From the IMG/VR virus record IMGVR_UViG_2698536657_000019: a stretch of DNA of 8,788 nucleotides. The stretch is one strand, 5' to 3'. Of this stretch, positions 5,640 to 8,336 are shown one piece after another. Position 1 is the stretch's first letter, and each line of letters begins with the position of its first letter. A program made the translations under genes and the position numbers. Source of the stretch: a virus (taxonomy: Duplodnaviria > Heunggongvirae > Uroviricota > Caudoviricetes). The notes beneath the pieces were generated by a model. The model was not told the origin of the DNA. It saw nothing but the letters and a program-made list of their open reading frames with translations, and did no database searches.

Positions 5640-5834
5640 TTACAGTGATTCGTCTCTTGTCAGCCTAAAAATCACTTCAGCCATGACTTCGCTAATTACA
5701 TCGATCCCCTGATCGGTAAGGGCTTCTTTCCAGGCCTTGCTTGCACGTGTTGGATCCATCCTGCCTGATTGCTGTTGTATGATGATGAAGCGTAAATCGC
5801 TGTATAAGTCTTTTGTTTGAGTGGAGTCAGTCAT
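5640..5834 (-). CDS. hypothetical small protein, 64 aa
   Basis: SD GAAGG about 7 nt upstream of ATG 5834. Its start codon shares bases with the ATG of the plus-strand gene at 5833 (CATG), so one of the two starts may be wrong. Confidence 0.45.
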   Translation of the reverse strand: MTDSTQTKDLYSDLRFIIIQQQSGRMDPTRASKAWKEALTDQGIDVISEVMAEVIFRLTRDESL

Positions 5835-6270
5835 GTCAATACCTTCAAATCTTGATGTTTTTAATGAAACAGTTGGTAAAACTTTTGCGTTTCTTTATGA
5901 AACTTTTCCCCGCAAAGTAACTATTGATATTTGTGCCTTAACCGGTGTTTCAGAGCTGACTTTTGAAGAAGACCGATCCTCCAGGAGGCAACTAGTTGAA
6001 GCTCTTGAGCTTCGCCGTGACTCCATCGCATGGCTTGTTGATGCTGGTTATGTATCCGCTAAATCTTCTCCTCCGCATTACTTTTCTGATGCGGTTCTCA
6101 CGGCCAAAGGTCTTGAATTACTTAAGCTTGATCCAGAGTCACTTAAACAATCATTTGGCGACAAGCTTGTTGATGCAGCCAAGAGTGGTTCAATGGATGC
6201 GATAAAAAGCACCGCATCATCCGCTCTTACTACTGGGTTATCCTTTGCTTTCAAAAGTCTTCTTGGTTGA
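5833..6270 (+). CDS. hypothetical protein, 145 aa, AT-rich opposite-strand cargo gene
   Basis: ATG 5833 with SD GAGTGGAG about 6 nt upstream. The ORF-track GTG at 5821 has no SD. Visibly AT-rich, A/T-ending codons, opposite to the early operon. Followed by a perfect 8-bp hairpin. No recognisable catalytic motif; hydrophobic C-terminus SALTTGLSFAFKSLLG. Confidence 0.55.
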   Translation: MSIPSNLDVFNETVGKTFAFLYETFPRKVTIDICALTGVSELTFEEDRSSRRQLVEALELRRDSIAWLVDAGYVSAKSSPPHYFSDAVLTAKGLELLKLDPESLKQSFGDKLVDAAKSGSMDAIKSTASSALTTGLSFAFKSLLG

Positions 6271-6351: not shown

Positions 6352-6777
6352 TTAAGCTGCTTTTTTACTGATACGTTTATTCCGTAAACCAGCTGCTGGC
6401 TTAAATAAAAAAAGTCGGTTTTCCCATTCGTGCCATTCTTGCGGTGCGTTTTCAGTGAGTCGATCGCAGGCTTCATCCCACGCTTTCCGGTTGATGTAGA
6501 GTTCGGCGTTTCCGCCAGGCTTGAGAGGGTCCGCCATGTACACAGCGGGTAATTTCCCTGCTTTTGCCATGCTCACGATGGCGTCAACGGTCTTGCCGAT
6601 ATACATCGCAAACCCTTCTTTTGACAGGAGATGAGAAGGGTTTTGTGAAAGCCTGATTTCCTGGCGTTCAGGGGCTTTGCGCCCGGTCTTTTGGTGTGCG
6701 GTTTCTGGCGCATCTGTCAACTGATCGCACTGTGTTTCGGCAGGCGATTCAGGCGCGTTTTGAGTGACTTCTTGCAT
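6352..6777 (-). CDS. cox: Cox-like excisionase / transcriptional regulator with an N-terminal extension, 141 aa
   Basis: C-terminal half (FAMYIGKTVDAIVSMAKAGKLPAVYMADP...AW) resembles P2 Cox (FAKLIGK...GKLPVIDMTDP...AW) from memory. Start set at ATG 6777 with strong SD GGAGGA about 7 nt upstream. Divergent from the repressor. Confidence 0.75.
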   Translation of the reverse strand: MQEVTQNAPESPAETQCDQLTDAPETAHQKTGRKAPERQEIRLSQNPSHLLSKEGFAMYIGKTVDAIVSMAKAGKLPAVYMADPLKPGGNAELYINRKAWDEACDRLTENAPQEWHEWENRLFLFKPAAGLRNKRISKKAA

Positions 6778-6884
6778 CTGGTATCCTCCGTTATTGGTGC
6801 TATTTCTATTTAGCACCAGTTAGAGCCGCCTAGATTGTCTCTAGGTGTGTTTGTTGATGTATAAACTAAGAGAGTTAACTCACT
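6778..6884. promoter_or_regulatory. immunity switch region between cox and the repressor, with operator-like repeats
   Basis: 107-bp intergenic region between divergent cox and C. Perfect inverted repeat TGGTGCTA-N8-TAGCACCA (6795..6818), CCTAGA-N5-TCTAGG (6829..6845), TAG motifs phased at about 10 bp (6811, 6821, 6831, 6842), and a -10-like TATAAA (6860..6865) upstream of C. Confidence 0.6.
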
Positions 6885-7184
6885 ATGTCAACTAACGTAG
6901 GTGAAAAAATTAGAATCATGCGTAAGTCTGAAATGCTTACACAAGAAAAAATGGCTGAAATTACAGGGCTCACGGTAGCGGCCCTGCGTCAATATGAACA
7001 GGGGAGAAATGAGCCAAATCTTGAATCCACAAAAAAGCTGCTCAAGTCTCCCGTCTTCCGTAAATACCGTGACTGGTTTTTGTTCGATGAGGTCGAACCA
7101 AAGGCCGGGCAGGTGGTACCGGCTCTCGCACACATTGGGCAAAGCGAAGCGGAATCATCCCACTCCGGCAAGAAGACTGGTTAA
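6885..7184 (+). CDS. C: P2 C-type immunity repressor (XRE-like HTH), 99 aa
   Basis: 99 aa, HTH segment LTQEKMAEITGLTVAALRQYEQG, C-terminus APALAHIGQSE...SHSGKKTG resembling P2 C as remembered. Lies immediately upstream of and co-oriented with int. Confidence 0.8.
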   Translation: MSTNVGEKIRIMRKSEMLTQEKMAEITGLTVAALRQYEQGRNEPNLESTKKLLKSPVFRKYRDWFLFDEVEPKAGQVVPALAHIGQSEAESSHSGKKTG

Positions 7185-7250: not shown

Positions 7251-8246
7251 ATGTCGATTAAGAAGCTCGCTGATGGCAAATACTGTGTGGACGTGCGGCC
7301 TGCTGGATCTGAAGGAAGAAGATTTCGGCGGCGATTTCCTACCCGTGGTGAAGCGGCGATGTATGAACGCCATGTTCTGACGCATTATCACGATAAGGAC
7401 TGGGTCGAAAAACCTATTGAACGTAAAGCGTTAAGCGATCTTCTGGAACTGTGGTGGGTGTACCACGGTAAGAATCATCGTTATGGCGCGATGAATCGGG
7501 TCAGAATTGAAGCGGTTCTTCGTGATATGCAAGAGCTTGGTATTAACAGAAGTGACCACTTAACCCGAAAAAATATTATCAGATATCGCCTTGAATTAAT
7601 GAATCGCGGAATTAAGCAGTCAACGGTAAATCGTTATTGTGCAATGATGAGCGGTTTCTTTGAAAAGCTGATTGATGTTGAAGAGTTTGTGGGTGATAAC
7701 CCGTTTCACGAGATACGCAAGCTAACAATTAATCAGCCGGAAATGGCTTATCTTGCACATGATGATATTCCCAGGCTAACCGCACTTTTATCTGGCGATA
7801 ATCTTAAGGCTGTATTGTTAAGCCTGGCTACAGGCGGGCGCTGGGGTGAAGTTGCCAATATTAAAGGTGAACACATAATTGGTGGGAAGGTTATTTTCAT
7901 GGAGACAAAGAATGGATCGCGGCGGGTTATTCCTATAGCTAAAGATCTTGAATCTCTGATTAAAGTCAAAGCGACGGGAAGATTAATGAACCCCAGTTAT
8001 GCGATAGTCAGAAGTGCAATAAGGACTGTGCGGCCTGATTTACCAGTCGGTCAGTCTGTGCATGTTTTACGGCACACATTCGCAACTCATTTCATGATAA
8101 ATGGAGGGAACATTATTACCCTTCAGCGTATTTTAGGGCACAGCACAATTCAGCAGACAATGACCTATGCGCACTTTGCACCTGATTATCTCCAGGACGC
8201 GGTAAGGTTCAATCCGGTTGCGGAGTTGTCCAGATTTTGCCCATAA
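7251..8246 (+). CDS. int: P2-like tyrosine integrase, 331 aa
   Basis: N-terminus MSIKKLADGKYCVDVRPAG parallels P2 Int. Catalytic motifs TGGRWGE, HVLRHTFATHF, LGHSTIQQTMTYAHF (Tyr nucleophile). Start moved from the ORF-track GTG 7215 to ATG 7251. Confidence 0.9.
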   Translation: MSIKKLADGKYCVDVRPAGSEGRRFRRRFPTRGEAAMYERHVLTHYHDKDWVEKPIERKALSDLLELWWVYHGKNHRYGAMNRVRIEAVLRDMQELGINRSDHLTRKNIIRYRLELMNRGIKQSTVNRYCAMMSGFFEKLIDVEEFVGDNPFHEIRKLTINQPEMAYLAHDDIPRLTALLSGDNLKAVLLSLATGGRWGEVANIKGEHIIGGKVIFMETKNGSRRVIPIAKDLESLIKVKATGRLMNPSYAIVRSAIRTVRPDLPVGQSVHVLRHTFATHFMINGGNIITLQRILGHSTIQQTMTYAHFAPDYLQDAVRFNPVAELSRFCP

Positions 8247-8336
8247 ACGGGGACTAAATGGCACTATTCCGAACTACTTTGAACTCGTAACTATTTGATA
8301 TATAAAGGGGGATAGCGATACGCGCTACCCCCTTAT

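Follow-up and report, generated by a model that had tools for sequence, protein, structure and literature searches.

The DNA analysed here, referred to as the window, is the whole stretch of 8,788 nucleotides of IMGVR_UViG_2698536657_000019, read on one strand, and corresponds to the int-C-cox (right-hand) end of a P88-like (Xuanwuvirus) P2-family prophage adjoining chpS. The genes of Cox and of the C immunity repressor are encoded divergently (Table 1), the cox start being the CAT at 6775-6777 (minus strand) and the C start the ATG at 6885, and these start codons confirm the 107-bp gap between both genes given in an earlier note on this DNA. The cox product is recognized by Pfam Phage_Cox (E 1e-27, residues 40-120) and by PDB 4LHF, P2 Cox (E 1.2e-5), and shares 35% identity with P2 Cox over 68 aa; an identical 141-aa ORF is present in the RefSeq annotation. 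C and P2 C have equal length and 45% identity across 99/99 residues, and the match of C to PDB 2L49/2XCJ has an E of 1.6e-26. Hence, a C homologue of about 100 aa and a Cox-family gene are found in divergent arrangement, as in a P2-type switch. The gene of a tyrosine integrase, whose start was taken from the RefSeq annotation of identical prophages, lies downstream of C and is followed by the host gene chpS.

Some other elements of the window deserve mention. The first 39 codons of cox (6661-6777) encode the variable, acidic N-terminal extension of the long-Cox family, which is missing from P2 Cox. The first six codons, together with the ribosome-binding site upstream, are conserved as DNA, which may reflect an overlapping promoter. 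An ORF of 149 aa without Pfam match (5821-6270, plus strand) opposes the early operon between cox and a DUF4761 gene; two near-identical prophages have it annotated, P88 and E. coli O22:H8 strain 154 lack it, and it may be an inserted cargo gene. Within 1063-1273 of the minus strand, Rfam models match a C4 antisense RNA (1063-1150, 82.6 bits), an isrK-like sRNA (1186-1260, 67.1 bits) and, weakly, the C4 a1/b1 target (1221-1273), that is, a P1/P7-type antisense immunity module in the early region, besides the C/Cox switch.

Among named phages, Escherichia phage P88 (Xuanwuvirus) comes nearest: the DNA identity over cox-C is 82%, and the proteins are 84% (Cox) and 92% (C) identical, P88 C having one conservative change (V31L) within the helix-turn-helix segment. 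A 99% identical copy is present in four complete E. coli genomes, and the three examined all adjoin chpS. Relatives were collected by three IMG/VR scans, which gave 79 distinct switch regions, and 80 of the 181 long-Cox loci in IMG/VR were retrieved; a profile search of genome contigs with the C alignment returned only four distant, irrelevant loci. The long-Cox family is formed by Cox proteins of 116-141 aa with the motif KEGFA, and 41 members entered the regressions described below. The 79 regions are mosaic, one Cox being found with various C proteins and vice versa. The locus of E. coli JNEC-KY202 (L171, 1905-2045) has the cox side and the chpS locus of the window and differs from it in the C gene and the right half of the gap; since the identity stops within the left arm of the inverted repeat IR1 (see below), the switch appears to recombine as two modules. 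Two IMG/VR contigs, 3300028453_000033 (L009) and 3300029722_000178 (L010), carry two tandem C genes at about 1250-1800. A window-type cox and a switch are followed there by a C of another immunity, two bases and a remnant of the cox start and ribosome-binding site, and onward by an IR1-like repeat, boxes, Pe, a C 100% identical to that of the window, and int. The arrangement looks like that of a prophage with two immunity repressors.

Table 1. Features of the window considered in the text; promoters and protein-binding sites are predictions
Feature	Position	Strand	Description
cox	6352..6777	-	141 aa; Cox family winged-helix, 39-aa N-terminal extension
Pc, best candidate	6760..6787	+	TTGAGT (6760-6765), 16 nt, TATCCT (6782-6787); consensus match
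IR1 left arm	6795..6802	-	minus-strand reading TAGCACCA; putative inverted Cox box; score 8.3
Box 1 (IR1 right arm)	6811..6818	+	TAGCACCA; exact TRGNACYA; first of phased array
Box 2	6821..6828	+	TAGAGCCG, degenerate; 10 bp past box 1
IR2	6829..6845	.	CCTAGA-N5-TCTAGG; by-product of two adjacent CTAG boxes, no element itself
Box 3	6831..6838	+	TAGATTGT, degenerate; 10 bp past box 2; CTAG is core of IR2 left arm
Box 4	6842..6849	+	TAGGTGTG, degenerate; 11 bp past box 3; CTAG is core of IR2 right arm
Probable C operator region	6845..6882	.	flanks Pe -10; by analogy with P2, W-phi and P2 Hy dis operators
Early promoter Pe (predicted)	6863..6891	-	TTGACA (6891..6886), 17 nt, TAGTTT (6868..6863)
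C immunity repressor	6885..7184	+	99 aa; Pfam HTH_3
Tyrosine integrase (int)	7251..8246	+	Pfam Int_N and Phage_integrase
Second array, att arm past int stop	8249..8293	+	GGGGACTA 8249, TGGCACTA 8259, CCGAACTA 8269
Second array, continued	8279-8293	+	TTGAACTC 8279; CGTAACTA 8286, out of phase
IHF consensus match	8288..8300	-	TATCAAATAGTTA; att arm; only match in window

The earlier note singled out in the gap a perfect 8-bp inverted repeat with an 8-bp spacer, a second inverted repeat of 6 bp and TAG motifs about one helical turn apart, and all three stand. The first repeat, IR1, is built by TGGTGCTA (6795-6802), 8 nt and TAGCACCA (6811-6818), 100% complementary; the second, IR2, by CCTAGA (6829-6834), 5 nt and TCTAGG (6840-6845); and the TAG motifs begin at 6811, 6821, 6831 and 6842, in steps of 10, 10 and 11. 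How often such features arise by chance was gauged with 3000 dinucleotide-preserving shuffles of this 107-bp sequence. The four-TAG chain at 10/11-bp steps has a P of about 0.0017, and an inverted repeat with arms of at least 8 and a spacer of up to 15 a P of about 0.02; a 6-bp arm is common, about 27% of the shuffles reaching 6 or more, and two or more repeats of at least 6 appear in about 9% of them, an approximate value as nested registers are counted separately. By these values, chance accounts least well for the phasing, IR1 is unusual to a moderate degree, and IR2 taken by itself is not remarkable; the palindromes are less informative than the TAG phasing, which is the strongest signal. 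Two features are additional to the earlier note, a perfect 10-bp palindrome, GAGTTAACTC (6872-6881), and an early promoter beside the C start.

Chains of a 3-mer with at least four copies in 10/11-bp steps are found only twice in the 8788-bp window, 0.36 being expected per shuffled window: TAG at 6811-6842, and ACT at 8253, 8263, 8273 and 8283, the latter beginning seven bases past the int stop. A single 8-mer, TRGNACYA, describes both arrays when they are read on the C-sense strand. With a matrix trained solely on the switch boxes of relatives, box 1 obtains the top score of the window on both strands (14.5), the att box at 8259, an exact consensus match, is third, and the inverted copy at 6795-6802 fifth. 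Boxes 2-4 of the window are poor matches, progressively degenerate and with little kept beyond TAG; at the position of box 2 the relatives have TAGAACTA or TGGAACCA, and box 4 reads TGG in two near-identical prophages, by which TRG is still satisfied. The switch boxes of P88, TAGCACCA, TAGAACTA and TAGCGCAA, are better copies than those of the window, and its att boxes read TAGGACTA, TAAGCCCA and TAAGACTA. Relatives with the 135-aa type of Cox present CGGAACCA/TGGAACCA and TAGAACTA/TAGAACCA at the switch, and TAGCACTA and TAGAACGA/TAGAACTA at att. Phased boxes of the same type exist in at least five different att arms, and the P88, L034/L107/L109, L124 and L160 types of arm have this kind of box. 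On the C-sense strand, TRGNACYA reaches a density of 10.4 per kb in the switch gaps (53 distinct) and 13.8 per kb in the att arms (13 distinct), compared with 0.18 per kb in the flanking genes (126 kb), counts in which many of the sequences are related; since the consensus was derived from the switch gaps, only the enrichment at the att arms is independent. When one mismatch is allowed the 8-mer is not enriched in the whole window (29 found vs 35 expected). The TRGNACYA signal is one of location and phasing, not of number.

In P2, Cox represses Pc and directs excision. A Cox site is annotated in the P2 record in the segment from the attP core to the int 3′ end; in the switch, P2 Cox binds phased boxes that cover Pc (PMC3936717). 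As the TAG and ACT chains sit at these two places, Cox is favoured as the protein that would bind them. The Cox site, which the earlier note had offered as one of several options, gains support from the fact that the TAG repeats and the right arm of IR1 fall within one phased box array, and from the recurrence of the box family beside int in the att arm, the second known place of P2 Cox. We consider it probable that the gap is a P2-type lysis/lysogeny switch and that the palindromes and phased TAG motifs form its Cox side; with features that are most likely Cox boxes, the switch looks ordinary for the P2 type, with a box sequence of its own. In a control, the published P2 box, TTAAA(G/C)NC(A/C), finds the switch and the annotated att Cox site of P2 itself. 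Neither box is found in the sites of the other phage: that of P2, with up to one mismatch, has no match in 6778-6884 or 8240-8330 of the window, and TRGNACYA has none in the 1.2-kb switch locus or the 371-bp att locus of P2. In the alignments, R29 and R30 of the recognition helix of P2 Cox correspond to V68 and S69 here, a replacement from which a changed box specificity would plausibly be expected. The box next to IR1 is constant (GGAACCA) for one Cox type paired with three C types. The similarity of the left half of the gap follows Cox identity weakly (beta 0.16) and C identity somewhat more (0.33), which by itself does not support Cox as the binder; as the Cox core is highly conserved in the long-Cox family, such covariation is not to be expected. 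Short-Cox relatives have an inverted repeat, GGCGCT-TTAT-AGCGCC, that is better read as direct P2-like boxes, GCGCTTTAT and GCGCCTTAA, 10 bp apart.

The IHF consensus match lies between the phased att boxes and the host-DNA junction, overlapping the out-of-phase fifth box, and supports the assignment of 8247-8330 as a recombination arm. The sequence TGTCCAGA (8227-8234), within the int 3′ end, resembles a P2-type Int arm site (TGTGGACA on the other strand); the P2 Int arm site is likewise annotated inside the int 3′ end. Regarding the switch, the earlier note had also thought of a host-factor site, and the location of the sole IHF match of the window, outside the switch, speaks against it. That the switch motifs serve a host factor such as IHF, or that IR2 is an intrinsic terminator, is extremely improbable. 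IR2 and the T-rich run following it were flagged as terminator-like on the plus strand by a motif scan; however, instead of the conserved GC-rich stem with a T run that characterizes such a terminator, IR2 has a stem that is broken in the nearest relatives, and IR1 has no T run following it on either strand. IR2 exists only because boxes 3 and 4 begin with the self-complementary CTAG: a pair of CTAG spaced by 11 bp is in itself an inverted repeat of 4 bp, to which chance would add the two flanking pairs once in 16 cases. The conservation that the earlier note expected of functional palindromes fails for IR2: of the four near-identical E. coli prophages, two, JNEC-KY204 and O22:H8 154, have a broken repeat (TCTGGG), as have L009/L010 (TATAGG), and P88 lacks it. 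For IR1 the arms remain recognizable among relatives, whereas the perfect 8/8 repeat, common to three near-identical E. coli prophages, is present in no other distinct family sequence compared.

Promoters were sought with a sigma-70 weight matrix whose values are good for ranking only. In the P2 control, the annotated Pe came out at the top and the annotated Pc -10 second, and the true Pc scored poorly; a standard promoter scan, demanding at least 4/6 per hexamer, gave none in the region. The predicted Pe (score 12.0) takes first rank, at a constant position, in the window and in all nine relatives scanned, as the annotated Pe does in P2. Its -35 overlaps the C start codon, and transcription would start at about 6856, towards cox. 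In both P2 and the window, the TGTCAA right after the A of the ATG is a perfect TTGACA on the opposite strand, and Pe of P2 is TTGACA-17-TAGTAT with its -35 just inside the C coding start. From this shared layout at the C start, Pe would be placed against the C gene, reading towards cox as in P2.

The best candidate for Pc has the highest score on the plus strand (10.2) and a constant position in P88, L020, L027 and L109; its -10 runs into the cox ribosome-binding site, and the whole family retains T-A-N-N-C-T. Its start would be at about 6794-6797, the first bases of IR1, and its transcript would overlap that of Pe by about 60 nt; the overlap amounts to about 35 nt in P2 and 82 nt in W-phi (PMC1904263). 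If this candidate is right, the opposed box at 6795-6802 would coincide with the Pc start, and the array would occupy the stretch from there to the Pe start. With TTTAGC-16-TAGATT (6809-6836), a weaker candidate, the boxes would come to lie over Pc, but this one is not conserved. Two further candidates were rejected: the left-arm TTGGTG as a Pc -35, which has no -10-like hexamer 16-18 bp downstream in the window nor consistently in relatives, and a back-to-back Pc by the C gene, TTGATG-16-TAACTC/T, which would begin transcription no earlier than the C start codon. In the transcript predicted from Pc, the start codon of C would be occluded by a pairing that is possible between GUUGAUGU (about 6853-6860) and AUGUCAAC at that codon (region 6853-6893).

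IR1 is two facing copies of the best box, TAGCACCA, the right one of which begins the array. The left copy, 16 bp (about 1.5 turns) from box 1, is by this offset out of phase with the array. Among 42 members of the family, 22 (52%) have an inverted box with up to one mismatch at nt 17-18 past the cox ATG, compared with about 10% of shuffles, and the distance from the left element to box 1 varies between 13 and 22 bp. In 33 distinct arm pairs, 61% of the positions are complementary, and position 5, the unconstrained position of the box, is mismatched in 14 of them. Such variable spacing, with arms that do not covary, indicates that IR1 is neither a rigid operator or dimer site nor a selected hairpin; its symmetry would be mostly the product of two opposed consensus boxes.

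The symmetry could instead have no function, the right arm being a box and the left arm being retained for another reason, as the Pc start region or for the distance of the cox 5′ leader to its ribosome-binding site, and matching by chance. The left element is indeed fixed with respect to the cox start and variable with respect to box 1, always starts with TTGG whatever comes after, and the chance P of about 0.02 is not extreme. Yet the excess of inverted boxes over shuffles, and the identity of the left element of the window with box 1 at 8/8 positions, make this rather improbable, and we hold to two opposed boxes. In the first switch of L010, the Cox of which is the same as that of the window, both arms are changed in a compensatory manner (TGGCCCCT/AGGGACCA, 7/8 paired), which hints at some selection for symmetry itself, and an inverted repeat, TTAGTGC-N10-GCACTAA, is also present in P2 where the transcripts from its two start sites overlap. 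For these two reasons, pure symmetry and a role as RNA are kept as minor rivals.

As RNA, IR1 would be the 5′ stem-loop of the C-int (Pc) transcript or part of the cox leader upstream of the ribosome-binding site, and the stem would stabilize the message or tune translation. Both strands fold into hairpins (z about -3.8), the Pc candidate would start its transcript at the first IR1 base, the P2 repeat occupies the corresponding overlap, hairpins tolerate loops as variable as the offsets seen here, and mismatches compatible with G-U are more frequent on the plus strand (27) than on the minus strand (17). However, the fold z-scores merely restate the repeats, and the pairing that exists follows from both arms fitting the box consensus, without covariation at the free position, where it would be possible. 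Furthermore, among the sequences compared, the perfect stem of the window recurs only in the three near-identical prophages, L010 provides the one compensatory case, and no Rfam family matches at IR1. A stem-loop function is thus quite unlikely, and the opposed boxes are retained as the preferred explanation of IR1.

The operator of C is most likely located at Pe, beside the C start codon, as in P2. In P2, W-phi and P2 Hy dis, from which the three mapped C operators come, the operator consists of direct repeats located at Pe (PMC1904268), those of P2 being two copies of ATCTAAAC, 22 bp apart, that flank the Pe -10. The palindromes of the earlier note lie towards the opposite, cox-proximal end of the gap. 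Among 41 relatives, the similarity of the 45 bp adjoining the C start varies with the identity of C (standardised beta 0.75) and not with that of Cox (-0.16). By this conservation and the P2 analogy, the C operator would be placed in 6845-6884. The candidate half-sites are GAGAGTTAA (6870-6878) with GTGTGTTTG (6845-6853), 25 bp apart, or alternatively TTAACTCA (6875-6882) with TTGATGTA (6854-6861), 21 bp apart; they match at only 4-5 of 8-9 positions, which makes the assignment uncertain. The direct repeats at the Pe -10 of P88 (GTGTGTTAA/GTGAGTTAA, 8/9, 25 bp), those of L019 (GCTAACGCA/GTTAACGCA, 8/9, 21 bp) and those of the MDIPQ-type C (CATATGTGG twice, 21 bp apart) are more alike. The palindrome GAGTTAACTC lies in the Pe spacer, beside the C ribosome-binding site. 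In DETEC-S792, L009 and P88 it shrinks to 8 bp by a C to T change at 6881, and some other C types have at that place a palindrome with both arms changed (TGGAG-aa-CTCCA vs TTGAG-aa-CTCAA). Pe-spacer palindromes with arms of at least 5 are found in 8 of 46 C-proximal regions vs about 7% of shuffles, a mild enrichment. As the palindrome of the window loses a pair in the closest relatives, it is not claimed as operator.

The earlier note had suggested that the perfect palindromes might mean a C operator of a design different from that of P2, and IR1 would in such a case be a palindromic operator for dimeric C, perhaps for autoregulation of Pc. P2 C is a symmetric dimer structurally similar to proteins that bind palindromes (PMC2995052) and reportedly regulates its own promoter (PMC3448106), and IR1 is perfect, with the low chance probability given above. 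Nevertheless, the mapped operators of the P2 group are direct repeats at Pe, and it is the 45 C-proximal bp, not the IR1 region, that track C identity. Nor does IR1 behave as the operators of lambda CI or 186 CI type, with fixed arm spacing and arms that follow repressor specificity: (i) its arm offset varies and the box next to it is unchanged across three C types; (ii) prophage-like contigs with a 100% identical C show a 7-nt spacer and one mutated arm; (iii) P88, with its closely similar C, has 7-bp arms and an 11-nt spacer; (iv) the left arm is retained in contigs with the same cox side and different C genes, and (v) the half-sites of IR1 resemble nothing near Pe. A palindromic operator at IR1 is very unlikely, and the different design is not borne out.

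For the P2-type switch that we favour, we propose a model in which Cox most likely recognizes the 8-mer TRGNACYA, unlike the TTAAA(G/C)NC(A/C) of P2. Four boxes in the same direction, one turn apart, would be available in the gap, together with a fifth copy of TAGCACCA in the opposed direction. By analogy with P2, Cox would polymerize from one phased box to the next, wrapping the DNA that separates the facing promoters. The opposed box, which keeps a distance of 17-18 nt to the cox start and coincides with the predicted start of Pc, could guide Cox to bind over Pc, and the boxes of the att arm beside int would serve excision. C would bind elsewhere, to two half-sites flanking the Pe -10, less than 40 bp from its own start codon. 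A bolder version, which we regard as unlikely, makes of IR1 a two-way nucleation point for Cox, from identical boxes facing apart by 1.5 turns. One filament would grow rightward along the phased boxes towards Pe, and the other leftward over the Pc start and the cox ribosome-binding site, so that a single protein, acting at one symmetric site, would silence the lysogenic promoter and restrain its own operon. The crystal structure study of P2 Cox is said to have proposed that the filament grows solely in the direction in which the boxes point. The opposed identical boxes would offer a handy substrate, and a natural test, for whether box orientation sets the direction of the Cox filament. If the proposed model is right, it provides a testable recognition sequence for a widespread, unstudied branch of Cox proteins (long Cox, P88-like prophages, E. 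coli and relatives) and extends to it the logic of P2, in which one small protein acts via phased boxes at the switch and at att; the general picture of how P2-type switches work is left unchanged.

Compared with other members of the group, the heteroimmune P2 relative W-phi also has a Cox that uses its own repeat, not the P2 cox-boxes, and a different promoter spacing, as seen in the longer transcript overlap (PMC5009727, PMC1904263). Its Cox reportedly recognizes a 12-nt direct repeat, and no opposed pair is described; the comparison is by description. In 186, the repressor is CI, of another type, which binds inverted repeats (PMC1904268, PMC1904263). Its Apl, likened here by description, is a small recombination-directionality factor that acts on helically spaced direct repeats located between the convergent early promoters and at att (PMC7498355). 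For P88, a literature search found no study of the switch, and the paper on this phage apparently deals with host range (PMC5285337). P88 and the E. coli prophages at the chpS/ppa locus are the closest relatives of the window. P88 shares with it the gene order, the integration region, Pe, the IR1 arms (7 bp) and the phased boxes, and differs in a longer IR1 spacer, the absence of IR2 and better boxes 2 and 3 (TAGAACTA, TAGCGCAA).

In both P2 and the window, cox and C diverge from a gap of around 110 bp (114 in P2, 107 in the window), the Pe -35 is a TTGACA over the C start with a 17-nt spacer, and boxes about 10 bp apart occupy the cox-side part of the gap and recur in the segment from int to the att core (PMC3936717). 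There are also differences: the Pe -35 of P2 starts one base inside the coding sequence whereas that of the window overlaps the ATG; the C half-sites of the window show no obvious perfect repeats, unlike those of P2; and an opposed box makes a perfect palindrome in the window, compared with P2. Finally, the P2 boxes cover the -10 and -35 of Pc, whereas in the window, with a Pc candidate placed partly inside cox, the boxes may lie downstream of the Pc start.
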